DNA of 46,253 nucleotides, the filler included, from Catajapyx aquilonaris (lineage: Eukaryota), in NCBI GenBank assembly GCA_000934665.2. It is 2 parts of 2 records of this genome, joined end to end, with 100 filler letters (N's around TTAATTAATTAA, not from the genome) between each part and the next. Parts side by side here need not be neighbours in the genome. Positions count along the whole stretch, not along the records: positions 1 to 23,067 come from JYFJ02005751.1; 1 more part is not named here. One strand, given 5' to 3'. The position numbers were made by a program, and so were the translations under genes. The notes beneath the pieces are model-generated. The model made no database searches. It worked only from the letters and a program-made list of their open reading frames with translations, and was not told the DNA's origin. Shown in pieces: positions 1-41,563 of this stretch. Numbering within the stretch: the stretch's first letter is position 1; the number at the start of each line of letters is the position of its first letter.

Positions 1-339
1 CCGGCCAAGTCATCTCACTTAGCTTATAGCCTCGAAGAAAGGCTTGGCGTCCACCACGATCTCACGACTTTGTACGGCGGAGTGGACAAGGCTTGGCACC
101 CAGACACCATCTCACAGGGGTTTTTTTCGGCGGAAGACTTGGCGCTTTTTTACGACTGCGTTTTTGAGTGGGATTAATATTTACATAATAATCCCTTCAC
201 CATGAAGATGTTAGTATTTTCATGGTTAAGCGCGTTATTCGGTATTCGTTCCTCCGCAAGACGCAAACGCACCACTGTGAATGTCTTGTGCAGCATCTGC
301 TGCGAGAAACTACACGTAGTTTCTCTCCTTGAGAATAAT

Positions 340-619
340 AATATCTTACCCCGTTATCAGCCTTTTTCGGCTCTTTTGGGGGGATTTTTGTTTTGTCAGG
401 AACTCTTGCGTACATGTTTACTGTTTGCTTTTTGGGATAGGATAGGGAAGGAAGGAGGCGGCTGTGGCCTTTTTAATTAGGAAGCAACCCCGGAATTCTC
501 CTGGAGAGACCGTGGGAAACCACAGAAAACCACGGTTAGAGTCGCCGGCCCCGGGGCTCGAACCCAGGACCTCCCGATTAGCAGTCGGACCCTGTAGCCA
601 CTACACCAAACTGCTTCGG
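340..619 (-). mobile_element. tRNA-derived SINE (family A)
   Basis: Minus-strand A-box-like TGGTGTAGTGG and B-box GGTTCGAGCCC; body GGCCACAGCCGCCTCCTTCCTTCCCTATCC; (ATT)n-type tail; 16-bp TSD TCTCCTTGAGAATAAT at 324-339 and 620-635. Confidence 0.9.
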
Positions 620-838
620 TCTCCTTGAGAATAATTATAATGTGAATTGCCTGAGCAAAGCATCACCTCTGCACTAGACATGAAACAGAGATAGTATGCA
701 TAAGATGTTATTATTTCAATCAATGTCCTTCTGCATAAGACAACGACAGAGTATGATCTGGAAAATACAGTAGACTACAAGTTGCATCAGGAACTAAGGT
801 ATCCCCCAACATTATTCCAGATATATGTATGTAGTGAT

Positions 839-1159
839 ACAGCTTCTCGGCCTCTGGCTAAGATCAAGGCGCCCATCGAGTGGTCCTCTCGGACCAACTC
901 GTATTTCTTGGTCGGACGGGGTGCTTGGGAGATTATCCCACCCCGTCCCTGGGTTGGACCCGGCATTGCAGTACAGCCGGGTCCAGCCCTCCTCTCCCCT
1001 ACCCTTCTCCCCCACCCCTACCTTGCAATCCCACACCTTCCTCTCCTCCCCCCGGCTGCCAAGGCTTGACTCAGACAGAGCCATACAAGCTGGGTAACCC
1101 TTCCAAACCAACCAACCAACCAACCAACCAACCAACCAACCAACCAACCAACCAACCAA
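839..1159 (+). mobile_element. U2 snRNA-derived SINE-like element / rearranged U2 retrocopy
   Basis: 839-868 ACAGCTTCTCGGCCTCTGGCTAAGATCAAG matches the U2 5' end (SL I). Sm-like ATTTCTTGG at 903-911; SL III-like hairpin 914-948; SL IV GGGTTGGACCCGGC-ATTGCAGTACA-GCCGGGTCCAGCCC at 951-989. The GTGTAGTA branch-point region is absent. Followed by a pyrimidine-rich spacer, a stem-loop and an (AACC)n tail. Confidence 0.8.
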
Positions 1160-1869
1160 GATATAGGTACCTATGTTTATCATTACATTAATGTAGTGTC
1201 CAGTAGGGTGTAGCGTCATGGGCGATCTGGAGGCACATTTCAGGTTTTGTTAAGTGGACCTCCCAAACTTCAAATATGAAAAGAAATTTTTATTCCGACA
1301 AGTGGAACACCCCCTATTTTGACCTTGAAATTTGTTAAAATGCCCAACTTAGACCAATGAATGCTTACCAGCGACATGGTTGCGGACATATTGGTAAATG
1401 CATGGCATAGGGAATCGCAGCTATGTCTCCTCTACTCCTGTGCCAAATTTGGTTGACAGGAAACCAACAGCAAAGCCACAAAAAAATGGAATAGTGACCC
1501 CCCGCCAGTTCCGCGCAAGGCTGTGCTCGTTTCCCAACTCCTCCCATTCTCGTCAGTAAAGAAGCGCTACAACTCCTCCAGCTACTCCCAAAGAAAGGGT
1601 TGCAGGGTTTGTCTAGAACTCTAGATGATTAAGGCCACTGCCTCCCACCTCTGGGGACTTGAGTTCAAGTCCCGGCTAGGACTGAGTTTGCCTATATGAG
1701 CGTCATTGAGCGAATGTTACACTTATCTTCTAAAGTCAAATATGAAAGGAAATTTTTTGGGATATGAAAGATTTCTTAAAATTGTCTAGTCAATATTTTA
1801 TTTTTGCAATAAGCACATACACTGTCATACACTGCTACATAAGTACAGAGTGCAGTTTATTTAGGAAAT

Positions 1870-2808
1870 TGTCACGAGGTCAAATTCAAGAGGTCCCAAA
1901 AGCAGAGAGTGACGTACTAAGGTGCAATTTAAAGAGAGAATTTATTCTCAAAAAAAAAAACTGTTCAGGAAAAAATAGGAGCAAGTCCACTCAAATATAG
2001 GTTCACAATAATATTGGGATGTGGAGAACGGACGGCTAGGAAGGTCAGATTAACAAACAAAACAATCCTGAACAAAACATCCAAATAACGTGTACAACTA
2101 GAGTATAAACCAACACACTTGGCACTCATGGAAATAACACTCCACATTCACTTTCACTTTCTACTCCCGCTTCACGCTCCACTAGCCCGGAGCGATAAAG
2201 AAGAGCAGGCCCCCCAAAAAAATGTATGCACTGGCGCAACTAAGCAACACGCACCGTTACACACATACGTTCTATAGAAGATCCAGGTCCGGATCTCCAG
2301 AGTTGAACAAACACTCCGGTGAGATGACAAATCCTCGTTGGTGTCCTTGATGACGAGAGTCCAACTTCACCACTGTCGTTGAACACAGGCGTATACCGCC
2401 TACTTCACCACTGTCGTTGAACACAGGCATCTACAGCCTACAGTGTCAAACAGTGCGACACGTCCCCAATAAAAGGGGAAGGGAGGGAAGGCAAAGGAAA
2501 CGACCGTGTACAATTTTACCACGGCCTCCAAACCTTCAAACCACTGACAAGTAACGGGAACCCACCCGTACCACAGTAACTCCCCAGAATTACGTACAAG
2601 TACCTTTCACTCGTACAACCCAAAGGGGGGGAAAATAGCAAGTCACCCAGCGTACACAGAGCATACCAGCTCCGCTGAGGAGACGCCACATACTGACCAC
2701 GCAGGGCCAGAAAAAAACTCTTCAAGAAAAAAAAATCCTAGCGACTAAGCAATTCCATTTTACAAGCCGAGTCCGTGAGACAGGCCAGTCCAAAAGTCAC
2801 ACGTGACA
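1870..2808. mobile_element. Solo LTR (939 bp) inserted in the left arm of the palindrome
   Basis: Termini TGTCACG...CGTGACA; 5-bp TSD GAAAT at 1865-1869 and 2809-2813; the right arm shows the empty site; no internal gag/pol. Confidence 0.9.
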
Positions 2809-2813
2809 GAAAT

Positions 2814-3330
2814 GGTACATTAAAGTCTTTCTTACTTCTGAATGAAGCCATAAAGTCACGGGATTTACATGCTGACCTAATATAGCCATCTCTTGCCTCC
2901 TTTCCGTAAACTGCCTCGGATGCTTCAGTTACCACCTACACGCATCTTTCCACTGCTTGAGAGTGACATGGTAACGTTACGACACGGGGTTCCTCAATTA
3001 TCATCCGCTCAAGCTTTTCGATGGAGAACTGCATCGTGAGTGGAGGTTCCGCCTTGCACTCTTCCACTGGTGGAAGTAGATCTTTCAAAATCTGAGATCT
3101 TTTCTGGACCTTTGGAGGGCGAAATTCTCTGGCTGGCTGTTGTTTGGGAAGTTGCGGAATGGTCTTGATTACATCGACTGCCAATTTCCAGTTTTCATGG
3201 TCATCATCTGCAAGCTTGATTTGGTGCAGAAAATGTTTCGGGCCATCTGTACATCTTGGGTGACGTTTGATCCTGAACCACATAAGTCCATAGTGGCACA
3301 CGACGCACTGTGCGAGTAAATGCAGCTCTT
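2814..3330 (-). pseudogene. hAT-type transposase C-terminal fragment, left arm (internal deletion and frameshift)
   Basis: Reads EELHLLAQCVVCHYGLMWFRIKRHPRCTDGPKHFLHQIKL//ADDDHENW...PCHSQAVERCV. It lacks the VTLLPP...LLAML segment of the right arm, and a small deletion near 2936 shifts the frame. Confidence 0.8.
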
Positions 3331-3880
3331 CACAGATGGCCCGAAACATTTTCTGCACCAAATCAAGCTGGTAACACTATTGCCACCGGCAAGCGAGGAC
3401 ATTTTATGGCGTGTTATCCAAAGAAACGCGTATTGGGCTCACCATGAAAATGTGTTACTAGCGATGCTTGCAGATGATGACCATGAAAACTGGAAATTGG
3501 CAGTCGATGTAATCAAGACCATTCCGCAACTTCCCAAACCACAGCCAGCCAGAGAATTTCGCCCTCCAAAGGTCCAGAAAAGATCTCAGATTTTGAAAGA
3601 TCTGCTTCCACCAGTGGAAGAGTGCAAGGCGGAACCTCCAGTCACGATGCAGTTCTCCATCGAAAAGCTTGAGCGGATGATAATTGAGGAACCCCGTGTC
3701 GTAACGTTACCATGTCACTCTCAAGCAGTGGAAAGATGCGTGAAGGTGGTAACTGAAGCATCCGAGGCAGTTTACGGAAAGGCGGCAAGAGATGGCTATA
3801 TTAGGTCAGCATGTAAATCCCGTGACTTTATGGCTTCATTCAGAAGTAAGAAAGACTTTAATGTACCATTTCCTAAATAA
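3331..3880 (+). pseudogene. hAT-type transposase C-terminal fragment, right arm
   Basis: Open frame TDGPKHFLHQIKL...IQRNAYWAHHENVLLAML...EPPVT...LPCHSQAVERCVKVVTEAS...KKDFNVPFPK*. It is 5'-truncated at the palindrome centre. Confidence 0.85.
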
Positions 3881-4579
3881 ACTGCACTCTGTACTTATGT
3901 AGCAGTGTATGACAGTGTATGTGCTTATTGCAAAAATAAAATATTGACTAGACAATTTTAAGAAATCTTTCATATCCCAAAAAATTTCCTTTCATATTTG
4001 ACTTTAGAAGATAAGTGTAACATTCGCTCAATGACGCTCATATAGGCAAACTTAGTCCTAGCCGGGACTTGAACTCAAGTCCCCAGAGGTGGGAGGCAGT
4101 GGCCTTAATCATCTAGAGTTCTAGACAAACCCTGCAACCCTTTCTTTGGGAGTAGCTGGAGGAGTTGTAGCGCTTCTTTACTGACGAGAATGGGAGGAGT
4201 TGGGAAACGAGCATAGCCTTGCGCGGAACTGGCGGGGGGTCACTATTCCATTTTTTTGTGGCTTTGCTGTCGGTTTCCTGTCAACCAAATGTGGCACAGG
4301 AGTAGAGGAGACATAGCTGCGATTCCCTATGCCATGCATTTACCAATATGTCCGCAACCATGTCGCTGGTAAGCATTCATTGGTCTAAGTTGGGCATTTT
4401 AACAATTTTCAAGGTCAAAAAGGGGGGTGTTCCACTTGTCGGGGAAAAAAATTCTTTTCATATTTGTAGTTTGGGAGGTCCACTTAACAAAACCTGAAAT
4501 GTGCCTTTTGATCCGATAAAATTCGTCCAATGACTCTACACCCTAATATACAGTACGTAGCTAAATATAAACTGAAAAA

Positions 4580-4710
4580 CCCTTAAGGCGCTCAGTGGTG
4601 CTCCAGCTAGGCGTCCCGGGTAGGTCTACGGGTAGGTACAATCCTTAGGTACTCCCAGGTACTCCTTGGTATTCCGGTGTACACTCTACAGTCGAGTGAG
4701 TACCCCCTCG
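4580..4710 (-). mobile_element. Degenerate copy of the small TIR element with GGAGTACC minisatellite
   Basis: Reverse complement GAGGGGGTACTCACTCGACTGTAGAGTGTACACCGGAATACCAAGGAGTACCTGGGAGTACC resembles 30799-30952 and 7515-7686. Confidence 0.55.
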
Positions 4711-5151
4711 GGCGGCATGTTTAAACAACAGCTGGACAGAAAAAGTCATAATCAGGTCTTGCAAAAAATATATAACTTGTCTTATACTGTTCTTCACTCA
4801 GAATTTATTGGCTTTGACAACTGCACAACAAAATTGATAATAAGTTACTCTCGTTTTTCTTGGGTTGTAGAGTGGCCTTCAGATTCATAGAGTTGAGGTC
4901 ATTAAAAAGACGTTAGGAAGAATTCCTACAATATATTTTCTCAAATGACACGTGCGGTCATCGCGTTCAGGTCACTACTGTACAATCCGCAGTCAATGTT
5001 AAAATTTTGGAACGTTGACTACAGCTGTCACTTTAATGATAAGCAATAATGACGACAAAAATAAACTACACGGACTAGGATACTAGGATTGGAGTGGATA
5101 CTTGCAACATCCTGAAAATTGATCTAGTTTGTCTGGGTGTGGACATGATCC

Positions 5152-6234
5152 TCACAGACGTGCCAAGTGTTTTGAACGGGACTCCTCTTTAATTCCGGTA
5201 ACAATCATGCTGGTAAAATAATTAATAATTCTGACCGCTGGTCTGAAACGACAGAGGGACGACAAGATAAATGTAATCAATTTGAAACTTATCTTAGAGT
5301 ACCACGACACTTTGAAAGAGAGCGTTTCAAAGACACTGGTAAATTTGTATACCCACATCATGAGAAGAAGGTAGGTTTCGCCACTCAAGACGAGGCGCGT
5401 CAAAGGAACAATATTGTGAGAAGCAGACACCAACATTCTACAGTAATATTCATTTTCCGCAGTAAAATTCTTCATGTTGCGCTGGAAAACTTCATCCATC
5501 GTCTCCTGGCAAATGGCTCTTATTTGATCCAATGTTTCCGTAAACGGATTCAAGTGTTCCTCTACTCCCAGGTGGTAACAAAGGACTTTCCACGTGTACA
5601 TGTAATCCCCGATCTCCTCCTCTGTTGCATTGTGTATGCCCACCTTCTCTGGACACAACACTACAGGAAATGTCATCATAACTGACGCCAAGGCGAGGTC
5701 CAGCTGGCTCATGTATGGACTCCCATCCTGCAGCTTGAATGGACACGGAGGTGACTGGTCCCTGATGTGTTCAGTCAGTCGACACTCTTCCCACAGCTGA
5801 GGCTCCTTGGACGTATCCATCTTGACTGCTTCCACCTTTGACCTGTTCTTATTGGCATACGCACCCAACCTCCTGTGTCAGTCCTGGACGTCCTTCATGC
5901 TTCGATACGCCTCGTCCTGTGCATCCCACAGGTCTCCTTAAAACCAGGTTGAAATGTGTGCAAGAGTGGCCATCATTAAGCGACGAAGTGTCTGCGGATT
6001 CTCAAACTTGCCGTAGTAGAGCACCACTTGATGTCCTGGCTCCCATAAAAAGTGGCCTGAGGCAGACATGAACACGGAGAGAAGCACTCCGAAGAGATTT
6101 CTCTGCGCGAAGGCCTGTCCCCTCCGAAACCTGTCCTTGTCCAACCAAGATGGAGCCTTGTCCACAGTGTTCACAACTGTGTAAGGCACCATCGCACCTT
6201 CTCGAATGAGCTTCTGCAGAGTTAGTCCTTCCAT
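5152..6234 (-). pseudogene. Intronless MpaB/DUF2236 (ER-bound oxygenase / rubber-oxygenase catalytic domain)-like gene with two in-frame stops
   Basis: One continuous frame of 360 codons from ATG 6234: PSWLDKDRFRRGQAF...TLAHISTWF*GDLWD...MKDVQD*HRR...SQLDLALA...PEKVGI...DYMYTWKVLCYHLGVEEHLN. Stops are TAA 5938-5940 and TGA 5878-5880. Family recognised from motifs. Confidence 0.75.
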
Positions 6235-6265
6235 TTGGAGTGAGGAAGACGAACGAGAAAGGGGC

Positions 6266-6273
6266 TTTATATA
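6266..6273 (-). promoter_or_regulatory. Candidate TATA box of the MpaB-like gene
   Basis: TATATAAA on the minus strand, about 32-40 bp upstream of ATG 6234. Confidence 0.4.
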
Positions 6274-6865
6274 TCCCCGAACGTACCAAGCATTGGAGCT
6301 ACGTACGTATACGATACATATGTCTGATGTGGCGTAACACCTGAAATTAATGGCATAGTTATGCAACATTTCATGCCTTATAACCGAGATGACACCGATA
6401 ACCGAGTCTAAACACGCCACATTACATGCCGGTTTAATATAAGGCGTGAAATGTTGCATAACTATGCTCTTAAGAATTTACAACAAGCAGTGGCAGAACA
6501 TATTCGAGGTATAAGTTGCAAGCGTTGTGTATTGGTGTGCGCCCTCATCATGAGCTATGCAAATGTTATTTTATTGGTAACCCTGGAGATGCTCCTCGGA
6601 AAATTAGATTCAATGAAAGTATTCGTTAAGACCTAGAATTTAAGTAAACAGAGCTTGACTAGTTAGAATTTGACATCAGTGGCTCCACAAATATATTCTT
6701 GCATTTTGTGTTAGTTTAAAAGGAAGGATCGCAGCCATTCGGCCATTTTTTCCATAGTTATAATTCCGGGTTGTACTGTGCAGTACCCGAAAAAGGACTG
6801 GAACGCAGAGTTAGTCCTTACATTTTTGCAAATAAGAAAGACTAACCAGAAGGAGGCATTATGTA

Positions 6866-7686: not shown

Positions 7687-8158
7687 CTATGAAGATTTAA
7701 TTTAAGTAAAAGGTTTCCTAGTAAATGCATTTTTATGATTATGGGCTTTATAATTATGGTATTTTTTCCTCTCCAAGACGCTTTTAACAGCTGTCACGCA
7801 CGCGAAAAAAAAACTTGAAATTTTGCATTTCTTGCAATACAAGGGGTCTGAGGAGGATGTCCTCACCGCTAGTCTCTGACGTGCACGCCTGACACAATCT
7901 TTTTGGGTTACGAAAGAGCAGAATCACGAGGAGAGTAGTTATGAAATTTTGAAATCTTTTCTCTAAAAACGCTCCAGCATAGAGAGAATTAATTAATATT
8001 TACATAATAATTCCTTCACCATGAAGATGTTAGTATTTTCATGGTTAAGCGCTTTATTCGGTATTCGTTCCTCCGCAAGACGCAAACGCACCACTGTGAA
8101 TGTCTTGTGCAGCATTTGCTGCGAGAAACTACACGTAGTTTTTCTCCTTGAGAATAAT

Positions 8159-8435
8159 ATCTTACCCCGTTATCAGCCTTTTTCGGCTGTTTAGGGGGGA
8201 TTTTTGTTTTGTCAGGAACGCTTGCGTACATGTTTACTGTTTGCTTTTTGGGATAGGATAGGGAAGGAAGGAGGCGGCTGTGGCCTTTTTAATTAGGAAG
8301 CAACCCCGGAATTCTCCTGGAGGGACCGTGGGAAACCACAGAAAACCACGGTTAGAGTCGCCGGCCCCGGGGCTCGAACCCAGGACCTCCCGATTAGCAG
8401 TCGGACCCTGTAGCCACTACACCAAACTGCTTCGG
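8159..8435 (-). mobile_element. tRNA-derived SINE (family A), duplicated copy
   Basis: Same element and same TSD (TCTCCTTGAGAATAAT) as 340-619. Confidence 0.9.
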
Positions 8436-8653
8436 TCTCCTTGAGAATAATTATAATGTGAATTGCCTGAGCAAAGCATCACCTCTGCACTAGACATGAA
8501 ACTGAGATAGTATGCGTAAGATGTTATTATTTCAATCAATGTCCTTCTGCATAAGACAACGACAGAGTTGCTCTGGAAAATACAGTAGACTACAAGTTGC
8601 ATCAAGAACTAAGGTATCCCCCAACATTATTCCAGATATATGTATGTATTGAT

Positions 8654-8943
8654 ACAGCTTCTCGGCCTCTGGCTAAGATCAAGGCGCCCATCGAGTGGTC
8701 CTCTCAGACCAACTCGTATTTCTTGGTCGGACTGGGTGCTTGGGAGATTATCCCACCCCCGTCCCTGGGTTGGACCCGGCATTGCAGTACAGCCGGGTCC
8801 AGCCCTCCTCTCCCCCACCCTTCTCCCTCACCCCTACCTTGCAATCCCACACCTTCCTCTCCTACCCCCGGCTGCCAAGGCTCGACTCAGACAGAGCAAT
8901 ACAAGCTGGGTAACCCTTCCAAACCAACCAACCAACCAACCAA
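8654..8943 (+). mobile_element. U2 snRNA-derived SINE-like element, duplicated copy
   Basis: Same organisation as 839-1159 (U2 SL I, Sm-like site, SL III, SL IV with ATTGCAGTAC loop, stem-loop, shorter AACC tail) and same flanks. Confidence 0.8.
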
Positions 8944-9889
8944 GATATAGGTACCTATGTTTATCATTACATTAATTTTGTGTCCAGGCAACTGGCTGTT
9001 GATGGTTGCCTGGTCACTGCATTATTGATGTTGTTGTGTAGTTCGATTCTGGCCGATCTCCTGATCGGACGCTGTGTAGTTGTTGTCCTGAATAGAGTTC
9101 CAAACTGGTTCTCATACCCTTCCCCGTGTGTTATTCTGTGGTGTCTCTGACGTACTCATCGTGGAGCACTGCATTAACTTAATTGCTACAGTATTGATAA
9201 CTATATGAACTGAAGCAAATAACATTCTTCCAATATTTTCTGTATTCTTTTCGTCCCTATTTACATGATAATACTTGCATAACATTATCATCGTATACTT
9301 GATACAGACGCGAGACTGCTTGCAACACGTCTAGTTTGCAATAAGCAATGCATTTTTGATACGTCATCACTGCCCTTGCAGGTGGGTGCGCAATAATAAT
9401 AATATAGCAATTATTATCACACCTATGATATGGGGTAAAAAATGAATGGTGTTTTATTTCGTAAGCCCTAAGGTGCATGTTTCTCACTATTGCAACAAAA
9501 AACCCGATGGTTCCGAATTTGGATTGGAGTTCGATTGGAATGGGTTCAGTATGTTCCTCCCAGCCTCTTCTTCGCGGATCGCCAAAGTACAGTTGACTCC
9601 GGATATAACAGCCTCGAAAGGGAAAATACGTTGTTTTTGATTATTCAACTTGCTTTCCCACGCGCAAGAATAAGACAGAGAATATACTGAGGAGTGTGAT
9701 TTTCGTATCTGTCACTGATCCAAGCTACTCAAAATCATCCTTTTTGTGGTACATTTGACAAAAATGAGACGACAGAGGAAAAGTACGGATTTTTTTGGGG
9801 TCCTGCGTAATTTACGGGTGAGCTAATTTTGCATTATTGTGGATAGTTTCATAAATGTATGCAGTAGTGGGTATTATAAGCATATTATA

Positions 9890-9918
9890 CTAGCAGGATA
9901 CCCGGCGTTGCTCGGGTT
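9890..9918 (-). mobile_element. Helitron 3' terminus
   Basis: Minus strand reads CCCGAGCAACGCCGGG hairpin, short spacer, CTAG|T. The 5' end was not located. Confidence 0.65.
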
Positions 9919-10851
9919 ATGAAATACTTTTCATATTAACTTGTTATGTAAGGTCGTCTCTGATACACTACTGGGGTAGTAATATTATTACTCCAGCGAA
10001 TCTGTGTCTCCAACAAATCTGTGTAGTGTCTGAAAAGCTCTACGAGCTTCAACTTGTAATAACATGTTTTGACACTCATGGAACATGCTGGTAACTCTCA
10101 GCTATCATCACTACACTTCTGAGCAACAGGACATTCAAAGATTAAATAAAATAAAAGATTATTTTCAAATAAATTATTAAGGGTACATGTTAGGTTCAGA
10201 GTGCAATATTTTTACTACTGAAAACATTGAAAATATTTAATGTGCTGACAACTTTTATGCAATCAATAATACGTTTTGATGGTGTCTAGAGGCGTCGCCT
10301 ACAAAATTCGGGCTCTATATGGTAGACCTTTGAGATTTTTGTTCAATGACTATAATAGTCACTAATATTACTGGCAATTAATTAATCTGAGAGGCAGGCA
10401 CGGAGTAGGGAAATGCATACACATGGATCTGTATACAAATCACATTTCGAGTGCCAGCAGCAGGGAATCTGGACTCGAGAAACTGCAGCGACCTACATTC
10501 ATTTTTCATATGGAAAACTATTTTTGCCAAGATCTTTCTACATACCTTTGATTGCAATTTTTCACTCGCAGCCTTGTACGACTTGGCATCTGCCATGTTA
10601 TGATCCACTTGAAGATGACTCATGTGATCATGAAGTTCAGACGCCACAACTTGGTATTGTTATAGCAGCAAACAAAACGGTAGTACTGAAAGTGCTGATT
10701 GTTAATCAGCTGAAATAGGAACGGTAATACCTTGCTTCACATATGAAGATTCATCCGTCCAAATAACTGCATTTAAAGACTTAGATGCCAATTTTACAAC
10801 TTTGGCTTACTGAATAATCCAATGACATTAAAAACCTATTTTTGAGGAAAT

Positions 10852-11124
10852 AATTGAAGGGGTCGGTCAAGGGGTCGGTGCAATACTGCCCTAACCCTCC
10901 CAAACCTGATTTTGAGAAAACTGCAGTTGAAAGTTTGAGAGACCATATAGTTACATCCCATATACCATGTGACTTATTTCATTTGATTTCTCAGTGACCG
11001 ATGGCAGAAACTGCACAATTTCAATGGATTTTATTAGATACATGAGTGTAGTACATGGAAGTGTGCTTAACTCAATTTGTGTCATTTGGTGGGTTAGGGC
11101 GGTATTGCACCGACCCTTTCAATT
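10852..11124. mobile_element. MITE (~270 bp)
   Basis: TIRs AAGGGGTCGGTGCAATACTGCCCTAACCC / GGGTTAGGGCGGTATTGCACCGACCCTT; the left end carries a short internal duplication. Confidence 0.8.
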
Positions 11125-13564
11125 ATGGTACTGTCAAATGTTCCATAATGACATTTATTTTTGCTCCAAAATAATATATGTAGAGGAGAATAACAGGGTT
11201 ACTTTCAGGCACTTTATTAAAAGTTAAGCTACATCTTGGAATATGATCATGCAATGCAAAAGTGATTCATTTCAGACTAAATAAAGGACTAATTGAGGTT
11301 GAAAACATTTGATGAACAGTAAGTAGTTCACCATGATTGTATCAGTCGGCTAGACTGACTAATAATTATTTTCTCTCATGCGAGCCCATCGAGTGCATAA
11401 TGAGAGTTCATATACCAGTTCCATCCAGCTTCTGTGGAAAAGATAATGAATTTTATTAACATCACTGCCCGGGTCATGTAATGGCGTTAAACACTTCTAG
11501 CAAGTGGGAGCGAGCACCATTCATTTCAGAATGGAATTTATCTACAAATTTTATTACTTGAAGTAAATGGTGTCAAAATGACAGCCAATAATGACGGATA
11601 TTAGAAATTTCACATTTTGACACGCTCTCCAGGAAGTGAAAGATGTAAATTATTTTGAAGTGCCCGAGTAAATTCAGCACGGACTCATGAATAATTTTTT
11701 TTAAAACTGAATCAGTTCATAACCAGAGGTAAATAATGACAGCACTCACCACATTCATGTACTCCTTCCTAAGTTGGTGTACAGTCACTGTGATGACTCA
11801 ACAGAAAGGAAGCTGAATTCGCGTCGACAGGACATCTCTTTTTGGCCTGGTTCTCATGTGATCGCACCTGATGTTTTGAGCAGCAGAAGAATTTCATGTT
11901 CTCATCTTGGGAATATAATGGAATAATTAGCAATCAGTGATAGCGATTGTTGTCTGCAAAAGTACTGGAAGAGTCATCAAGTCTATTATTGCTTCAGCCA
12001 AATATTATGCTAACTTGACTATGACAGCAATGACGCTCAACAATATCAACAATGAAACTCTCAGTTCAAAGAGAGTGACGTCACAAATCTTTGGGGATCT
12101 GAAATATTTGCGAAATCTAAATTTGCCAACATTCAAATGCGTGGTACCATATTCGTGAGCTCAAATAATCTTCTTATTACAGTCATATACTTATGGCCGT
12201 CACTCACCTACAATTAATGACCAAGCGAAGTCTAATAATAAAAAAAGCGTAATTTCATATAAATATTTCTCTGGGCAATTGCTGTTGCAGCTATATTGCA
12301 CTAAGCTGCTTGTTATTAGTCAGTTCCTCTTGCAGATTGCTAATATTTGGCAAATTGAATCACATAATTATTAAAGCTCTAAATTTTAAAGCAATGAATT
12401 TCTGATTGCAGAATGACTGAACTCAAAAATTGGCATCAATCTGGACTGATGGAATTCATTTTTTGCACCTTTTATTAAGGATGGGTACAGGCAGCCTAGT
12501 ATTAGTAGCTAATCTTTCAAAAACTACTATTACATTATGTGTTGTGCATGGAAAAGCACGCAAGTGCCACAAAGAAGCAATGAGCACTCTCAATGACAGT
12601 TGAAGTATTACTCTCTCATGCGACCTTTGCTCATTAGTCATTACACCTTACAGAATGATGATGCATCTGATTGGTCTCTGGACATCACCTGCCTGATTCT
12701 GCCAAACCAACAACCACTTTGGCCTCATCCAATTCAACTTCTGGAATCAAGCAATGCAAGCTGCTGTCGTCATCAGATGCCTCAAATCTTCTGTTGCCAT
12801 CTATCCGTGCAGACCAGACAATTCTGCTGAACTGATTATGTTGAAATTGTGTATTAGGCAATACCTGAGACCTTGATTGTGTCAAGTGATGATAATATTG
12901 CAGGATTTGAAGAAGTACAGTATAGTTCAAGATGTGGGCTATTAACTGCCCACAATATTTCTGACAGATGTTGATCTTGCAGAGGTTCATCTAGTTTCAT
13001 AATAATTATGTGAAGGTTCTCGGTTATTTGCAGGCATCAAACATAATTATCTTGGTGGAATTTGTAGTCTGCAAATGTCATTAAAATTTTCTAAGGCAAG
13101 ACAATTGATTGTGTTGCAATGCAACCTATAATAATTAGTATAGCTAAGGGTGGAATTTTCGTCACACTGCTAGTTACCAGTTACCAGTTACTCGTACTTC
13201 TAAATTAGCAGTACCAGTTCCAACACTGGTACTGCTAAGCAGTATTTTTCAATAGGGTCTCGTCTTACCTAATATAAACTGTTGTTATTTCCTATTTCTG
13301 ATTTCAACAACTGGTTGCTAGCCACGGCTACAATATAAGCAGTTAAGGCCGAATTTGTCAATAACTAAAACGACAAAAAAGTTTGATCACTCTGTATAAT
13401 TATAGGGGAATATATAGGGAAGTTGGTTTGTACAGCATGTTAGAGTTCACGAATCTTGACCACAACAATGCCAAAACAACAATTCTTTATTTGTGATGTA
13501 AATAACCGTACTTGTAGGTAGTTTGAACAGTCTTGAGCGGCTTTATAGGCATGATTTATTTCAC

Positions 13565-16055
<2,491 letters not shown>

Positions 16056-17099: not shown

Positions 17100-17249
17100 C
17101 TATCGGGCGCGGGTTCAAATACTTTTGGCAACTTTATCCTGGTCATGAAGCAACCCTTCACACACACACACGTCTCCTTAATGTGGGGTCTGTGCGAAGG
17201 GTTGCTTCAAGACCAGGATAAAGTGGACAAACGTATTTGAACCCGATAG
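17100..17249. mobile_element. Tc1/mariner-like MITE (~150 bp); second copy at 32996-33139
   Basis: Long TIRs CTATCGGG..TTCAAATACTTTTGG..ACTTTATCCTGG..GAAGCAACCCTTC; TA flanks. Confidence 0.85.
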
Positions 17250-17707
17250 TACCTGTTTCTAAGTAATTACCTTGTCATATGCTTGCATTTTTTTGAATTA
17301 GTAGTACTGTACGTATGTGGGTAAGCACAGTCATGATTAATTTTAACCAGGCGATTTTTAAATACCGAGGCTAGGTACATAACAACATAAGTACAGTTTC
17401 CTCAAAAATTGCCACCAGTCATCGTCGAATTTCTTCGAGCTTTGCGCCAGTCTCAAAATATGTGCACCTAGAGTTTTCAGTACACTGCATATATGACAAA
17501 AATTGAGGGCGTGCAAAAATTGACAATGAAAATAATTGAATCGCAAATTTGAAAAGGGGGATAAGTCACAAGAACCAAACTTTTCAGGAAGCACTTAAAA
17601 AAACCCAGAACCCTATGTGTTAGAGAGGTGAATATTTACTGAGAAGACAACATCATAACCATCTCAAAGAGATCCGTGGGATTTTTATTTAGGTAACTAC
17701 TCAATTA

Positions 17708-18245: not shown

Positions 18246-18664
18246 TACCCCATTGGGAGAATCGGCGCTCCATTTGGGGGGTGGAGTACCACCATTGAAT
18301 GGGGCCAAGGATAGGGAAGGAAGGAGGCGGCTGTGGCCTATTATACGGACCCCAGTATCAGTCAGGGTTGCCGGCCCCAGGATTCGAACCCAGGACCTCC
18401 CGATTAGCAGGCGGCTTCCTTAACCACCACACCAACTTCAGCATCCTCACATGCTGTGTCAAGGGTCTTCAGAGATGGCCCAATTCCTGCAAGTGGGCCT
18501 TTATGCATTTCCCTCGATATTTCTACTTCCATTTCTTACATGATACTGCATCGGCATCCTCCACACCATGTGATGCACGTATGGCTTACCTACAATTTGT
18601 ATATCTCAACTGGTTTTCTCATAAATCGGCACTTGGGCCCTTTTGCATATCCGTGCTTCAGTTG
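17708..18664. mobile_element. Non-autonomous TIR DNA transposon carrying a nested SINE
   Basis: TIRs CAGTTGAAGAACGGAAATGCAAAAGGGCCCA / TGGGCCCTTTTGCATATCCGTGCTTCAGTTG. Confidence 0.7.
18199..18435 (-). mobile_element. tRNA-derived SINE (family A-related head, different tail)
   Basis: TGGTGTGGTGG and GGTTCGAATCC boxes; (TAAA)n tail; 17-bp TSD CTTCAGCATCCTCACAT at 18182-18198 and 18436-18452. Confidence 0.92.
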
Positions 18665-18933
18665 CAAAAGGGGGGGCGGGGGAAAGAAAATATGACTTAA
18701 CCCTCTTTTTACCATTTTTCTGAATTACCAAGTACACCCGAAAATAATGAAAACAATTTTTTGCAGCATAGTTATGTGCTTCACTAACCTGCATTACTTC
18801 GCATTATTAATATTATCCTCTTATTCATCTACATGCGAGAATGTTGGTGTGGTGTAGAACGATGTGGTTTTCAGGGTCGTACTGGAGTAGATGCTCTGTA
18901 ATTTGCATCACACAACTCCATATACTGCATATA

Positions 18934-19372
18934 CAGGGTGCGGAAATTTAATCTATACCTTCGCTTTGGGGATGTCAGAGGGCTTCCAGACGATCATTTT
19001 AAATATAGGAATCGAGGGTCTCCGAATCATAGTTACCGAGATAATTAGCATTAAATAAAAAGTGCATTATCTCAGCTTATAGATTTCGGATACTGCTTAC
19101 GACACTTCCAGCGCCTAGGACATTCTCTGCTACACCCAATAGGATCGTAAATTAAAATTAAATAACATGGTAACACCTTAAATTTAAATGAAAAAGGTGA
19201 GGTCGCGTGGAGTGACGCATATGTGCCAGAATATTTTCTACCTTGTGCTTTAAGCATGTTATCTCGGTAACTATGCGTCGGAGACCCACGTTGCATAAAT
19301 ACTCAAAGTGATCGCCTAGAACCATCCGATCATTTCCCAAAGCGACGCGATTGTAGATTTTTCCGCACCCTG
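18934..19372. mobile_element. Tc1/mariner-like MITE (~440 bp); inverted second copy at 26513-26946
   Basis: TA|CAGGGTGCGGAAA...TTTCCGCACCCTG termini; the internal sequence matches 26513-26946 in reverse. Confidence 0.85.
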
Positions 19373-23787: not shown

Positions 23788-26700
23788 TCAAGGTAAATAA
23801 CCGATTTTAACAGGATGTATGTGCAAATCATTTTCTCTGAATGAGTGTGCTGCCTTTGACATGGGAACTACAACAAGATGGTAAAATATTTCAACAAGGC
23901 AAATAGTACTGAAGCCTATGAACAGACTGGCTATTCCTCCAAAGTCAGCTGAAAAATAGAGACATTATATAAGGGTTAAATGGGATATATCAATATGGTA
24001 CATTAAATTGTTAGCTCACCTATAACATTATTCCAGGTGTACCGCAAATCGCGCTTGTAACTAATATATGAAAAATCTTTGAAGAAGATGCGAAGTCTAA
24101 CATAATCTAATCTGTGAAAGATAGTAATAAGGAGTATTATACAGTATACACTGTATGAATTAGTACTGCCATCAAGAATGAACAACAGACATCATACTTA
24201 TTAGTTTTGGAAGTATGGGTTCATTCTTTGCTAGCATTAAACAAACTTCATTGATTGCCTCCCACAGATAGTCTGGATTATAGCATACAGTATTACGCAA
24301 ATTCATGAATACCTGTTTGTGTCATCAGAGACGTTTCCATTCCTGTAATCATAGTGCTTGCCTTCTAATTGACCGACGAAGTCTGCGGATGACACTTCAT
24401 GGGCATATTTTGTAGTTTTGCAATAGACAGGGCATTCGCATTTCATTCCACTTGCAGATATGTTGTAGTCATCAAGATTGTCCGTCGGGGTCAAAGTTGT
24501 GAAGTTAGCTGCAGGAGATAGGATTATAATATTGTGATGCCTTTTAATTTCACAGACAAATGAGTCATTTAAAAATGGTTTTACATACACTCATGAGCCG
24601 TGATGCACAGGATCTGCTGGAAGGTACACATGCCATAAGTGTTTCCTGCGGGAAATGGCAATATCTTAGGTTAGTATAGCCCTGGTGGCACACATCATTG
24701 ATTCAGGAGACCTTTTCTTATACTGTACCGGTACTTATTAATAATGACAAATTATAATTAAATGGAATTGCCATCAATTTTTAGTGTTATTTTTATAGCA
24801 TTGATATAATTATGCAGTCCACATTTTAGAGGTTCATTTTGTTCTCTAAAATGGTACCGTATTTAATGAAATCAACGATTGCACAGTACTTTCTGAGTGG
24901 AATAGGGGCATTAAAATAGGCCATCCTGGTCAATTTCAATAAATAATGTGAAATTTTGTGAACAAAGTGCACCTCAGTAAATCGGATCTCATTAACCATC
25001 GATATAAAAATGAAAAATTCCGCAATTTCCAATCTCTTCCCGCCGTCATTTGTAGTCAAATAAGCAACACTTTGACTCGTCACGTATCACTGTTGATTGT
25101 CACTTTTTATTCACGCTGTTTTGCGTGTTTTTCACCAAAATCTCCATCCCTGAAGCAAAATAGGCGTCCTACATATTCCCTCTCTTATTTTGTTATAGCA
25201 TTATTTTCGCCAATATGGATGCCAGCTAAATTCTGAAACACGTTGGCATACAAGTGAAACCCACTAACTTGTAAGACCTACTATTTTGGCAGCTGTGGGT
25301 TATTTACACCACTACGTAGCACATCATTCTGCTCTATCCAGCCTATCGCCTGATAAAGTATATTTAGTCCTCAATGTTCAGTGAGTCAGGAAGCCCGGGA
25401 TTTCTGGCTTCCCTAGCATATAAACAAGTGCAAGGTCAAATCTTTGAGCTGGATTATACTGTATTTCAAAAGTTTTTTAAAAAATCATTTCGTGGATTTT
25501 ACCTGTATGACGACGATTGGCTAAATGGTAAGTAAATCCAATCAGACTACAGCATCGTTTTGTTGCCTCACTTCCTATTGTTTATGTAGGTCCTACTCAT
25601 TATCAAATCTACTCCCTTACCATTTACTTAGAGGTCCAAGAAATACTCACTCGCGAAGTTCAACTGGTAAGGCACGCATCCGCAAATTCGGTTCATTTCC
25701 CGAATGCGACATTCGAAAATGCAGTTGTCGAATGTGTATTTCTTGTGAAAAGTCAATTTTACATCATCCTCCAAAGCGCATTGACGTTGGGGGTACGGCA
25801 TTCGTTCTATGTCTTCCACCGGAAACGTTTGTAGCGCTGACATACTGCATAGTACATATTTTCCTGCAGGTACCGGAATTCCACGCTCTAACACCAAAGG
25901 GAATGTGTAAGGGTTGTGAATGAGGACCTGAAATAGAACGAACCATGCAAATTGAACGGAATGGGCTATGTTGGAACCAGAATTATACCTTGAACCCGTG
26001 AAAGTTTTCGCTGTTGAAGGCTCCACTATCACCGGAAGGCACTCGTAGTACAGTGGTGACCCCGAAAGCAGACCCAGCAGATCCTACATGCCACAGTTTT
26101 TTTCCGGATTGATTTAAGAAATTCCGGAGAACAGATACGTTTCGTTTGGGTTCAGGTCTGAAAAGGAACCGTCTCTCTGAGGAGGTCGAAGAGTGCAAGT
26201 GCAATGTCTTGAACTGCAATTTTGTGCGTTTCCCTGGGTTGTGTTTTAAACATAAATACCGCTCGAGATGAAGCTGGACACAACTCAACTCTGCACAACG
26301 GGAAGAAAGCTCGGGCTTGGGATCGAACCCGGGACCACATCAATCAACTTGTCCCTGTTTCCGTTATTTGTTAGCAGTAATGTCCGGCAAGGAATGTGAT
26401 CGGCCATTGTACGTATCATACGGCTTCAACATAATTTTAATAGTTGGTCAAATTATTATCAGGTAAATGTGCAGATAACTTGCAAGTATTTTTAAAAACC
26501 CAACATAATATACAGGGTTAGGATTTAACCTACCGTCGCTTTGGGAAATGATAGATGGGTTCTAAGCGATCACTTTGAGTATATGCAACATAGGTCTCCG
26601 ACGCATAGTTACCGAGATAATGTGCTTCACACAGAAGGTATAAAATATCCTGGCACGTATGCGTCCCTCCACGCGACCTTACCTTTTTCATTTAAATTTA

Positions 26701-29521
26701 AGGTGTTACCGTGTAATTTAATTTAAATTTACGATCCTGTTAAGTGTAGCAGGGAATGGCCTAGGCGATGGAAGTGTCTTAAGCAGTATCCGAAACCTAT
26801 AAGCTGGGATAATGCACTTTTTATTTAATGCTAATTATCTCTGTAACTATATGGGTGGGAGGCCCATGTTGCATATACTCAAAGTGATCGCCTAGAACCC
26901 CTCTATCATTTCCCAAAGCGACGGTATATTAAATTTCCGAACCCTAGTGTACTGTATATTATATCTATGAAAGGGGTATAGTCGGCGCGTAAGCCTTGTC
27001 ATAATGAACAAGAAAGTGAAGCTAATATAAAGCGTGTAAAAAGACTTGCATGGAACTTACAATACGAAACCTCGTCGATTAAATGAGAAACAGTATCCCA
27101 TGTCGGTCGGGGCCAAGCTGAACATTTTGTTGCAGTCTGACAAGACTCCCAACCATAAACACTGCACAAACGTCTCATTGACTTGCGGCATCAGCTGTAA
27201 AGAGAAAAACTATTACTTGATGTTTAGTATAGTTTACCATCAGTTTGTTCACCAACCCACAACTTCCCTTGCTACATGGTTCGTCTCATGCACAGGACGA
27301 CCTCTATTACATACACATGTAACCTTAACAGGCAGTTATCTTCCGTAATGAACATGAAATCTCCAAAATAAACTAGTTTAATCTCGTCTTAAGTATAATA
27401 TTATCTCAAAGGACCCAGGTCTGAGAGCAAAGACTTAGCAGCAGGACGAAACAGTTCTAAATTAGCCTACTTCCATTGCCTAGCTTACAATATTAAATAG
27501 ATCCTGCAGAGGTCATTATACAGGATGTTTCTTTCTAGTATGCCGTCTGGCAAGCAGCGTACTCATTGACCCAAGACAAGACGAAAACATGGGGTGAGAA
27601 ATGTTGAGGGACCAACCGGTAAGGAGGTAGACGACCAGGCACACATTGGCCTGCCCCTAAACCTAGACACACCTTTCTGTAGGGAGATTTCCTGTCAGGT
27701 GGAACCCGCTCACCTTACCATAATATACTCTTAGGGAGCAGGATACAAGTGTTATAATCATTACTGAAGGTATATTGTGGGACGTTGCCTTTTTTGCAGT
27801 AGTGATTATCACGCTCATATCCTGCTCCCTGTGCAACTACATATGGCAGGGATATTCAACTGGCGGCCCGCGGTCCGGATCCGGACCGCGACGATTTTGT
27901 CCGGACCGCGACAATATACAGGACAGTTTGAAATAGCATGATAAATTACTAATTCATGATTGTTTTTTGGAACAGTGCTACCAATTTCATCAAATACACA
28001 CCTATTCAAATCTCCCACATTTCACCTAAGCTCGTGTGACCTTGAACCCCCCAAAATTTTCTCCCCGCCATTTACGGCTTGTTCACCTTGTGCTTGCGAA
28101 ATGGCCCCCCCTCCGAAATTCTTCTGCCTACGCCCCTAAAGGGCGAAAATGTCATATCCCCTGCCTTGATAGGCCCTTCTACCCTTGCTGCACATGCTTA
28201 TATTTTCGAATATGAACCCTGTGGTACCATATAAAATCTATATATTCCCCCCCCCCCCGGGGGGGGGGTGGTACGGACCTTCAGTGGCCCAGGGAAGGTA
28301 AATACTGGACCTTGTCAGAAACTAGTTGAATACCCCTGACATATGGTAAGGTGAGCGGGTTCACCTTTCAGGAGATCACCCCCTACAAATAGGTGTCGTG
28401 TGTGTTGCCGCGTGTGTTTAGGGGTAGTCCAATGTTTCTGGTCGTCTATTGTTCCCTTCGACATTTCTCCTCCGCCTCCTCCCTACATTTTCGCCCTGAT
28501 TTTGGCCAACGAGCACGCTGCCTGCCAGACGTAGTAGCCTAAGAGGCTAAGAAAATATATCCAGTATATACGTATTTCATGTAAGCACGCAACTCCTGAA
28601 TAACGGGCAGGCCAGTCAGAGTAGGGTTATTTTATAATACCGTATTTATACCGTGAACCTAAGATTACATTCTTCATTGATATGATTGTGTCGCTTCATT
28701 AACAGTACCTTTTCCATTTCTAATATTACTTGGGAAGAGTAGCTGTCGTAGATTTGTTCTAAATCATCCTTAAAGTCGGGATCTAAGGACTTAACAGAAT
28801 TAATTATATTTGATTTTGTCATAAGCATTGCAGTTAATTCAAAAAGGACCGGTATATCGTCTTCGGAAAGGCCCTCGTAGTGTCTGAAATGAAATATCAA
28901 TTATCAAGTTAGATTGTAAAATAAGATATGGTTGTAAAAATCTACAAATTAAGTGAAACAAAATGAAATTGCGACGAGCTAAACTATATAATGGTAATGA
29001 TTCTTTCACAATATATTATATGGAAGGCATTCTTACGGTTTGGATTTGAGATGTTCATCCCATCTGGATCGATCGATCCGATTTTCCGTGCATATTGTGA
29101 CTGCGGGAAATGGGACATTCCAAATTTCACGATGCGTGTTAAACGCGGTAATGTGAACTGCATCTGGGTAGTTCCACTGAATGTAATAGACCATTCCGAT
29201 TAAACCAAAAAATATAGCAGAGTAAGACAAGGTCCAAAACCTCCTGAAATTGTTGAAGTTTCTGAATGAGAAGTAACTGACTGTCATAATAAAATAATAA
29301 CTTAGATATATATAGACTTACTTCTCCATTACAGTGCCTCGACGCAGGTACTTCATACCGTGAAGAGACGACTTTTGCAAAAAGTTGTCAAAGTAATGAA
29401 AGCATCTGGTCCGTTTGCTTGGTGGTGCATTTTTTGTAGCATGTTCATTTCCTCGTTGCACGGCCCCTTGAGAGAACTCATTTGGTTTCTGAATATCCCA
29501 ACATATGCGTACTCCAGCCAT
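23788..29521 (-). CDS. DEG/ENaC (pickpocket-like) channel subunit 1, 10 exons, ~555 aa
   Basis: Exons 29521-29322, 29243-29037, 28883-28709, 27194-27061, 26157-25989, 25927-25651, 24645-24589, 24508-24313, 24111-24020, 23948-23788; phases consistent. Motifs SSLHGMKYL, TM1, FPAVTIC, TDMGYCFSFN, YTFDNCIFEC..CGCVP, CECPVYC, TM2 ADFGGIASLFIGFS..VE, C-terminal GYLP. Confidence 0.93.
26170..26340 (-). mobile_element. Truncated tRNA-derived SINE (family D)
   Basis: Minus strand GGTCCCGGGTTCGATCCCAAGCCCG..GTGCAGAGTT..CTCGAGCGGTATTT, related to 38206-38539. Confidence 0.65.
26513..26946. mobile_element. Tc1/mariner-like MITE, copy of 18934-19372
   Basis: TA|CAGGGTTAGG...CCGAACCCT termini; lies in intron 4 of ENaC gene 1. 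Confidence 0.85.
27521..28564. mobile_element. Long-TIR foldback MITE hosting a hAT MITE
   Basis: ~200-bp imperfect inverted arms (e.g. GAACCCGCTCACCTTACCATA / TATGGTAAGGTGAGCGGGTTC); TA flanks. Confidence 0.7.
27847..28338. mobile_element. hAT MITE
   Basis: TIRs CAGGGATATTCAACT / AGTTGAATACCCCTG; perfect 8-bp TSD ACATATGG. Confidence 0.9.
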
Positions 29522-31263: not shown

Positions 31264-31624
31264 TTTTTTTACGTTACCCCGTGATAAGGTGGAGCCTTTT
31301 AGGGGGGTGGAATACCACCATTTCACTCAATTTTTCTAGATTTTAACTTCATTCACCGGTGCAAGGAGTGAGGGATGTAGGGTACCGGTAGGGATTTTTG
31401 GGGAGGGAACATAGGTGCAACGTGCAAGTGCAAGGTCTGTAAAGGGGTGATGTGGGTGATGTGCTGTTCCCCAGGAGGTTAGGTTGCCAGACACCTCCTT
31501 GGTATATACAGGTGAGAGACCCTCCTGACGCAGGTGAAAGGAAAGCTCCCCAGGCGGGGATCGAACCTGGGGCCTTTCACTCAGCAAGCAGAGACGTTAC
31601 CATCTCGCCCATCTACACCTTCCC
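31264..31624 (-). mobile_element. tRNA-derived SINE (family C)
   Basis: Minus-strand B-box GGTTCGATCCC; body CCTGCGTCAGGAGGGTCTCT..CAACCTAACCTCCTGGGGAACAGCAC; A-tail; 12-bp TSD AACCGCAAGCAA at 31252-31263 and 31625-31636. Confidence 0.9.
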
Positions 31625-38500: not shown

Positions 38501-39400
38501 CGTGGGCGCATACGTTACCGCAGCACCACTCCGCCTCCCTTTCATTGTCTAAAATATAGTCTATGTTACATTAAATTAAATCCACAATGTTGGTGATAGT
38601 AGGCCCATATTTATGCAATTTGGATTTTCATTGGTTTAATTGGTATCTTCTGTACATTAACGCTTGGCATAACACAAATGGTAACTTACGTACGGTGCTC
38701 GGCCATGTAAGCTTCATATTTTGACTTTTCGATTTTGTTGACATTGCATATGGTAATTGCTGGGAAGTCAACGTTCCAGATTGGGTTGTGTGTGTCTGCT
38801 ACGGCGATGAATACCTGTTTAGGGTAGCCTTGTTGCATAAGGACAAGAACATAAATCAGTGCTACCATTACCACCAGGTAGCAGAACTTCCACAGCATCC
38901 TGAATACGACAGAATACGATAGTGTTAGCGGTCTTGTATACGTGGAGTGAGGCGCTTGGTTTTTATTAGACAGAAAAATCGAGTAAGAATTATTATTGTA
39001 GTCATAATACTCAAGGTAATGGGAAGTACTAAAACCAATGCAATACCAAGAGAAGGTTGTATTACCTGTCAAATCGTGGTCCTCTGCTGAGATACTTAGC
39101 TCCATGAAGTGATGTTTGCTGTAGAAAATTGTGTACGTAGTACCAGTAATTGGAGCTGTCAGTACATTCCTCCTCTTTCTCTCGGAATAAATTCCCCTTG
39201 ATGACTTCCGGAACATTCTTATTGGGCAAGGGCCTTACCCTCCGCCAGCTGTCCTCGAGATTCATGGCTGACCTCCTGGGATTGTGATTTTTCCGGAAAT
39301 CTAGTAAGAATCGATTCCCGATCAGCTGGAGGCATGTTTTGACATGTGTCTCCTTGCCCCTGGTCGTGGTTTCTATTCTTCTTCCCAACGATTGACCCAT
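32513..39400 (-). CDS. DEG/ENaC (pickpocket-like) channel subunit 2, 10 exons, ~624 aa
   Basis: Exons 39400-39066, 38899-38690, 37297-37129 (GC donor), 37036-36903, 36857-36665, 36344-36065, 33845-33789, 33355-33172, 32898-32807, 32733-32513. Motifs TSLHGAKYL, FPAITICN, TDSGYCFSFN, YTYDNCILAC..CHCIP, CDCPRPC, ADFGGITSLFIGFS..FE, GYLP. The start ATG could be a downstream one. Confidence 0.92.
32996..33139. mobile_element. Tc1/mariner-like MITE, copy of 17100-17249
   Basis: TA|CTATCGGGTTCAA...TTGAACCCAATAG|TA. Confidence 0.85.
34654..34868. mobile_element. pogo-like MITE
   Basis: TA|AGGTGAAGTGGGGTAAGTGCATAC...GTATGCACTTACCCCACTTCACCT|TA; ~75-bp TIRs with internal repeats. Confidence 0.85.
34969..35597. 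mobile_element. pogo-like non-autonomous element
   Basis: TIRs AGGTAAGTGTACCAGTGGTCGACA / TGTCGACCACTGGGATACTTACCT. Confidence 0.75.
38206..38539 (-). mobile_element. Full-length tRNA-derived SINE (family D)
   Basis: GGGAGGCGGAGTGGTGCTGCGGTAAC..GGTTCGATCCC head; (ATT)n tail; 19-bp TSD TTTCATTGTCTAAAATATA at 38187-38205 and 38540-38558. Confidence 0.92.
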
Positions 39401-41296: not shown

Positions 41297-41563
41297 CAAG
41301 AAATGGTTTTAAAATTCCCCCTTCCATTACTAGGAGGGGGTCAAAGGTGTGTCTTATATCATTGGATGAAAATTAAAATGTGGGCTATTCTACGAACTGG
41401 TGTTATTTAAGGAGACAGAACCACATGTAAAATTTCGTGGTGACAATTTGAGCATTTTTTCATAACTTAATTGCAAAGTTTCGCTCGTGGCTAATTTTTC
41501 AGATGTCAGACTTGAGTGGCTCTTTCTCATGTAGGTAGCATATAGCCTACCGATTTACCGCGT

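Follow-up and report, generated by a model that had tools for sequence, protein, structure and literature searches.

A retroposed SINE-like element derived from U2 snRNA, with an abundant 3′ part, in an apparently arthropod genome

Positions 830–1159 of the DNA analysed here hold a retroposed, SINE-like element made from U2 snRNA with an internal deletion. This identification is supported: I regard the element as retroposed and SINE-like because it is bounded by a significant target-site duplication, ends in a microsatellite tail, and shows a high word depth over 897–1110 in contigs of the same organism. Membership of its 3′ 210 bases in an abundant family is well supported. The original prediction of a U2-derived SINE therefore holds as to the retroposition, the U2 origin and the abundance of the 3′ part, but the first ∼58 bases, from the U2 5′ end through the hairpin, are not visibly high in copy number and belong to the family only possibly.

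Element layout and match to U2

In an Rfam covariance scan of the window (the whole 46-kb stretch of DNA that was analysed), U2 (RF00004) was the sole family above its gathering score, with two matches, both on the plus strand. These lie at 839–996 (61.3 bits) and 8654–8812 (60 bits), and both exceed the gathering score of 46, in agreement with the proposed U2 identity. The former was recovered when 780–1220 was rescanned; in that interval U2 was the only family found at E ≤ 10, and no Rfam LINE 3′ element matched the 3′ hairpin or the tail. The U2 alignment spans model positions 1–192 with an internal deletion. Bases 839–868 align with model positions 1–31, ending in AAGATCAAG, with a posterior probability that is mostly maximal (cmscan). 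Model positions 32–46 (consensus UGUAGUAUCUGUUCU, containing the branch-point recognition sequence) are absent from the element, and the stem-loop II modules, of 20 and 18 model positions, correspond to 6 and 13 bases. The element consequently lacks the combination of branch-point recognition sequence and stem-loop IIa by which a functional U2 is recognised.

The architecture that had been read from the sequence, summarised in Table 1, is confirmed in its main lines: the U2 5′ end, the deletion of the branch-point/stem-loop IIa part and its replacement by a linker and hairpin by the Rfam alignment; the Sm-like site, stem-loop (SL) III and SL IV in U2 order by alignment and folding; and the C/T-rich spacer, 3′ stem-loop and (AACC)n tail by direct reading, folding and Tandem Repeats Finder. 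The tail matches its repeat unit at 100%, and comprises 5.5 units in the second copy of the insertion (copy 2, against copy 1 at 830–1159). Each stem-loop was folded alone and compared with 200 shuffles. The hairpin at 877–901 reaches −15.1 kcal/mol, which 3 of the 200 shuffles equalled, SL III −23.9 kcal/mol (1/200) and SL IV −31.5 kcal/mol (0/200), while the signal is weaker for the 3′ hairpin, at −18.9 kcal/mol (10/200).

One detail of this architecture applies to a single insertion. In copy 1, A958 can pair with T982, giving a continuous SL IV stem, and the description of SL IV as fully paired is therefore correct for this copy, but not as a family trait. In most related contigs, G replaces T at 982 (in sequencing run X1, 10011 of a depth of 10941.8, in 24 contigs), so that an A/G mismatch falls at the internal loop of SL IV in the U2 model. 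Since the majority of related contigs have G982, the fully paired SL IV is private to the copy-1 insertion.

Table 1. Coordinates of the U2-derived element, its duplication and exons in the window.
Feature	Position	Strand	Basis
1-kb duplicated block with copy 1 (partner 7992–8987)	173–1203	.	self-BLAST, 94.3% over 1032 columns
5′ target-site duplication copy, AGATATATGTA	819–829	+	10/11 identical to 1159–1169
9-nt 5′ extension, TGTAGTGAT, between duplication and U2 position 1	830–838	+	direct reading
U2 5′ end (SL I and stretch before branch-point sequence)	839–868	+	cmscan alignment
Linker and hairpin (877–901) replacing branch-point region and stem-loop IIa/IIb	869–902	+	Rfam alignment, folding
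Sm-like site, ATTTCTTGG, with C interrupting the U run	903–911	+	aligned to AUUUUUgg of the U2 model
U2 stem-loop III	914–948	+	Rfam alignment, folding
U2 stem-loop IV, loop ATTGCAGTACA	951–989	+	Rfam alignment, folding
U2 3′ terminal bases (to 996) and C/T-rich spacer	990–1050	+	Rfam end, direct reading, high depth throughout
3′ hairpin, putatively recognised by a LINE reverse transcriptase	1051–1094	+	folding
(AACC)13.5 tail	1106–1159	+	Tandem Repeats Finder
3′ target-site duplication copy, AGATATAGGTA	1159–1169	+	starts at the final tail base
Second copy of the same insertion, 5.5-unit tail	8654–8943	+	97.2% identity to copy 1 over 290 columns
GH47 mannosidase exon	14645–15022	-	
Amiloride-sensitive channel exons (three)	25631–26083, 36015–36407, 38689–39234	-	

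Target-site duplication

The two copies of the 11-bp target-site duplication are identical at 10 of 11 positions, and the sequence into which the element inserted reads AGATATA(T/G)GTA. When the 3′ copy was anchored no more than 4 bases from the end of the tail, 10/11 was reached by none of 500 shuffled versions of the 40 bases upstream, and none of 1000 random genomic pairs at equal spacing, likewise tail-anchored, equalled the observed duplication; without anchoring, 5 of 500 shuffles did. The duplication, put forward originally as possible and degenerate, is thus significant, but it does not adjoin the U2 sequence, as the 9 bases at 830–838 part it from U2 position 1. The 330 bases between its two copies place the element among the short (<500 bp), tailed retroposons.

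The first 7 bases of the 5′ extension (830–836, TGTAGTG) recur at 1192–1198, 23 bases past the 3′ target-site copy. This post hoc observation might reflect a target duplication that was once longer and then internally deleted, or a 5′ joint made through microhomology.

Abundance of related sequences

Contigs of four DNA runs, from one sample of the same organism, were aligned to 560–1420 at 80% likeness. The summed word depth of these contigs does not equate to copy number, and the tail was skipped as a repeat. In run X1, the depth is 177–461 over the flank at 647–849, 528 at 850–878, 2834 at 879–907, 8132–13940 at 908–1081, 3766 at 1082–1110 and 54 at 1169–1197, with single flank contigs at 38–50. 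The first four of these intervals have depths of 51–271, 169, 1047 and 2213–6568 in run X4, and the same profile is found in all four runs. Word depth over 908–1081 is ∼20–70 times that of the flanks, a range also obtained for 897–1110. In contrast, the depth at 850–878 is only ∼2–3 times that of the adjoining flank bin, versus ∼70 times for 908–936, and the steep rise falls near position 897.

Within 897–1110, the only differences listed at 10% of depth or more are those at 982, 1010 and 1048, and an extra C behind 940. The majority letters at these three positions in X1 (G, A and A) occur in 24, 15 and 19 distinct contigs respectively; many sequence variants are thus present, as dispersed copies would give. 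Because of this depth and of the few listed variants, I conclude that the stretch from 897 to the tail, encompassing the Sm-like site, SL III, SL IV, the spacer and the 3′ hairpin, is an abundant, little-diverged repeat. The possibility raised at the outset, that the genome contains only the two copies seen in the window, fails for 897–1110. Among the related contigs, no variant at 10% of depth or more is listed within the Sm-like site (903–911); as this site is non-canonical, the related contigs are unlikely to be working U2 genes.

The depth is alike on both sides of the junction between U2 and the spacer in all four runs, and at least one contig (record 22, covering 941–1044 with 5 other letters and 8 gaps) reaches 31 letters or more beyond this junction in both directions. 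This bridging contig may stem from a paralogue of the 1-kb block described below, as opposed to an independent insertion. The depth over 897–994 could in principle also include true U2 genes or pseudogenes, with 995–1110 belonging to a separate family that shares the tail. The unvarying Sm-like site, the many sequence variants and the even depth across the junction argue against a contribution of true U2 genes.

Before position 897, the hairpin of the related contigs is a diverged version, ∼25% different, with about four substitutions and three small indels relative to 868–896, and still recognisably related to it. This version is a 30-letter loose-end consensus from 3–6 contigs per run (X1, X2 and X4), with an agreement of 0.98; a U2 5′ end may or may not precede it, and partial matches of 30 bases may escape the alignment.

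Segmental duplication and structural conservation

As originally proposed, the two copies in the window derive from one segmental duplication. Self-BLAST pairs 173–1203 with 7992–8987, at an identity of ∼94% that counts the tail-length gap, and copy 2 shares its flanks and its duplicated target site with copy 1. No further copy was found within the window by BLAST at a word size of 7. In the flank at 620–849, several variant contigs were identified, with 6–9 differences per 100–145 bases and each at single-copy depth, and hence the genome probably contains a few more paralogues of the 1-kb block than the two in the window. A reading of the 1-kb direct repeats as LTRs is little favoured: the block ends that were read showed no TG...CA, and the frames read or scanned between the repeats no gag/pol-like product.

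When copies 1 and 2 are aligned globally, the element (267 nt) has 8 differences, the upstream flank (666 nt) has 17, and the tails differ in length by 32 bases. The element thus changes at the rate of its flank, and there is no indication of structural selection within the window. In addition, two of the changes in copy 2, 891 G>A in the hairpin and 918 G>T in SL III, break stem pairs. The earlier suggestion that the paired stems reflect selection on structure is therefore not upheld, and their pairing can be plain inheritance from the host's own U2. Compared with copy 1, the variant hairpin of the related contigs has a paired change closing the inner stem (C...G against T...A at 881/896, derived by hand), which fits a conserved hairpin but falls short of proof.

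Transcription signals

Runs of at least four T or A residues are absent from 839–1159, and transcription by Pol III would therefore not be cut short by an internal terminator. Searches with consensus A- and B-box motifs gave poor matches. The best A-box-like match has 3 mismatches, and such matches occur at 12 per kb across the window; two B-box-like matches were found in SL IV, with 2 mismatches each, against a background of 1.1 per kb.

U1 and U2 genes possess external Pol II promoters, and the way in which the SINEU families are transcribed, and the reason why they amplify, are described as unsolved (PMC4494074). For the element described here, the 140 bases upstream are target DNA. In D. 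melanogaster, the invariant core of the PSEA is ATTC-CAA, within insect snRNA promoters that evolve fast (PMC1761439). In a functional U2 gene, a proximal sequence element would be expected upstream, centred some 50–55 bp from the start. The PSEA core, a D. melanogaster consensus that may not be that of the host, was not found in 700–838 with up to one mismatch.

Genomic surroundings

The window is ordinary animal DNA, with exons of a GH47 mannosidase and of an amiloride-sensitive channel (Table 1), and a neighbouring mpaB-like ORF whose nearest Atlas cluster is mostly Arthropoda, which points to an arthropod host. It also includes several other repeats. Positions 535–620 (and likewise 8351–8425 and 18361–18435) are a fragment of an extremely abundant one, with a depth of 330000–482000 at 560–588 versus ∼40–50 for single flank contigs. 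Read by eye on the minus strand, this fragment, which is located 200 bp upstream of the U2-derived insertion, starts like the head of a tRNA-derived SINE.

Two copies of a tRNA-derived SINE, which has a B box of the GGTTCGA type and ends in poly(A), lie at 41560–41880 (+) and 31290–31611 (−). A common body between this SINE (41560–41880) and the U2-derived element was considered and rejected. One of its copies and the spacer of the U2 element have 14 C-rich bases in common, and the likeness goes no further; this identity is absent from the other copy, which aligns no better than shuffles do (161/300), and Rfam found no U2 at the tRNA-derived SINE.

Nested inverted duplications, 98–99% identical, pair 1231–1872 with 3865–4506 and 2809–3215 with 3466–3872. 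They yield mirror-image ORFs of 146 and 186 amino acids, with no Pfam match; either a genuine palindrome or an error of assembly may lie behind them. Finally, two pairs of short repeats (17110–17252 with 32993–33142, and 18929–19371 with 26508–26945) match in both orientations, as palindromic MITEs or foldback elements do.

Origin of the element

The explanation that I consider probable is that 830–1159 represents a single retroposed copy of a retroposon that is short, non-coding and present in many copies, and that is fronted by U2 without its branch-point/SL IIa part. In the proposed scenario, a U2 transcript would have been fused with the 3′ portion of some retroposon's RNA, perhaps when a LINE reverse transcriptase switched templates. 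The alignment shows that about U2 positions 32 to 65–95 were then lost. So-called stringent LINE enzymes recognise a repeat tail with its preceding hairpin, and an enzyme of a LINE could in the same way recognise the 3′ hairpin and repeat tail of this element, with target-primed reverse transcription as the probable route of a multiplication that is itself partly shown. Self-BLAST identified no partner LINE in the 46-kb window. The present copy landed at the target sequence given above, duplicating 11 bp of it, and was subsequently carried along in the 1-kb segmental duplication, which gave the second copy. Within the window, the element is most likely inert, a passenger without sign of function.

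Given that the head at 839–878 is near flank depth, one may ask whether the element is instead a one-off chimeric retrocopy, in which the reverse transcriptase, during insertion of an abundant (AACC)n-tailed retroposon, switched to a U2 (or variant U2) RNA, and which has spread only by segmental duplication, with no family behind it. In humans, L1 activity is known to give rise to snRNA–retroposon chimeras that have target-site duplications (as summarised in PMC4494074), and the several paralogues of the flanking block could account for the few bridging contigs. However, template-switch chimeras normally contain an unaltered snRNA, in contrast to the internal deletion and non-canonical Sm-like site seen here. 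Moreover, the high-depth related contigs have this same Sm-like site together with a recognisably related hairpin linker, and similar depth flanks the U2/spacer junction in all four runs, all of which makes a one-off event unlikely. That the element is an internally deleted, non-autonomous LINE, with U2 as the 5′ head and the spacer, hairpin and tail as the 3′ UTR, has a parallel in some crocodilian Tx1 LINEs, which bear U1- or U2-derived 5′ heads in common with SINEU (PMC4494074). The 46-kb window, however, contains no LINE with the same head or tail, no Rfam LINE 3′ element matches, and coding remnants are not recognisable in 839–1105; I consider this origin quite improbable.

The original prediction also envisaged a U2 mimic. 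Such an expressed variant snRNA gene, assembling an Sm core and the proteins that bind SL IV and with no branch-point pairing, would be in keeping with the Sm-like site, SL III and SL IV with its conserved loop, all intact in copy 1, and with the absence of T runs of four or longer from the element. It is nonetheless at odds with the flanking target-site duplication and the repeat tail. The D. melanogaster PSEA core was also missing within 140 bp upstream, even at one mismatch, and copy 2 has stem-breaking changes, with a divergence between copies equal to that of the flank. A functional snRNA gene thus appears highly improbable, and the retroposed copy of a U2-fronted family remains the preferred reading.

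Implications

If the family truly carries the U2 head, this would be a second, probably independent snRNA-headed family, in a distant phylum, and comparison of the two could tell accident from requirement. Their value for such a comparison lies in a nearly identical deletion end-point, combined with a different tail type and with no internal oligo-T, as opposed to the crocodilian families. An improbable reading is that crocodilians (with SINEU-3) and an arthropod have each made a retroposon built on U2, in which positions 1 to ∼31, the Sm site, SL III and SL IV were kept, and the branch-point/SL IIa part was dropped. Provided that the family does have this head, recurrence of the same deletion would suggest a functional rule. 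The modules that are kept would let the RNA use the snRNP route, including stability, export, Sm assembly and nuclear return, to meet the LINE enzyme, and loss of the branch-point part would spare spliceosomes from poisoning.

Comparison with known elements

In print, such U2-headed SINE-like elements come from crocodilians only; the one described here apparently belongs to an arthropod. No description of an arthropod snRNA-headed SINE was found in the literature searched; a Daphnia preprint lists an automatic class 'SINE_U', and nothing more. A search of metagenomes with a two-anchor pattern (SL IV loop and 3′ hairpin) returned 2 loci, in bacterial-looking coding DNA that shares the anchors alone, and these were dismissed as chance matches. 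Two patterns run against a collection of prokaryote genomes, and one against viral contigs, gave 0 matches.

Cleavage of U2 genes by the LINEs Utopia and Keno falls between positions 38 and 39 (PMC4640811), 7 bases past the U2 break of the element at position 31. A derivative of these was nevertheless rejected because the flanks of the element are not U2: its 3′ flank is the duplicated target AGATATAGGTA, and not U2 from position 39 onward. The element also has a target-site duplication, whereas arthropod Utopia is described as producing none (PMC4640811). By eye, no reverse-transcriptase or endonuclease ORF was read in stop-to-stop frames of at least 120 amino acids crossing 830–1159.

The chimeras formed by L1 template switching (Buzdin 2002; Garcia-Perez 2007; both as cited in PMC4494074) resemble the element in having a 5′ snRNA, a 3′ retroposon part and target-site duplications. 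These are, however, independent single events with an unaltered snRNA, according to that text (PMC4494074). The snRNA part of the present element instead has an internal deletion, and no less than its 3′ two thirds is found again with the body at high depth. The element also resembles SINEU-1, SINEU-2 and the U1/U2-headed Tx1-Mar LINEs, in which an snRNA-derived 5′ part is likewise placed on an unrelated retroposon body. Its 9 bases at 830–838 have a parallel in the '5′ extensions', short stretches ahead of the snRNA start in some copies, that are described for SINEU-2 (PMC4494074). As presented there, the heads of these three are short fragments or U1–U2 fusions, whereas the element includes nearly the whole 3′ half of U2.

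The closest counterpart is SINEU-3, which is described as 32 bp of the U2 5′ end, a ∼50 bp internal deletion, 83 bp of U2, and a tail (Kojima 2015, PMC4494074). The element likewise consists of the first 31–32 U2 bases followed, past the deleted branch-point region, by the part with the Sm site, SL III and SL IV. Both are short, non-coding and multi-copy (for the element, over 897–1110), and in neither is an internal promoter readily recognised, the element having only poor A- and B-box matches. Unlike SINEU-3 as described there, the element has ∼110 extra body bases with a 3′ hairpin, an (AACC)n tail in place of poly(A), no visible target preference and no association with Mariner targets. 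It also has no internal oligo-T, which most crocodilian SINEU families possess (PMC4494074). Its host is apparently an arthropod, and that of SINEU-3 a crocodilian, and the element is therefore probably independent of SINEU-3 in origin. In SINEU, numerous copies have one common structure that includes the head, which sets a retrotransposition unit apart from independent chimeras; for the element, the high depth covers 897–1110, while 839–878 is near flank depth. Since the mark of SINEU is a U1- or U2-derived 5′ region, and that of the element is assigned to U2 by Rfam, it probably joins the SINEU kind as a new member from beyond the crocodilians.
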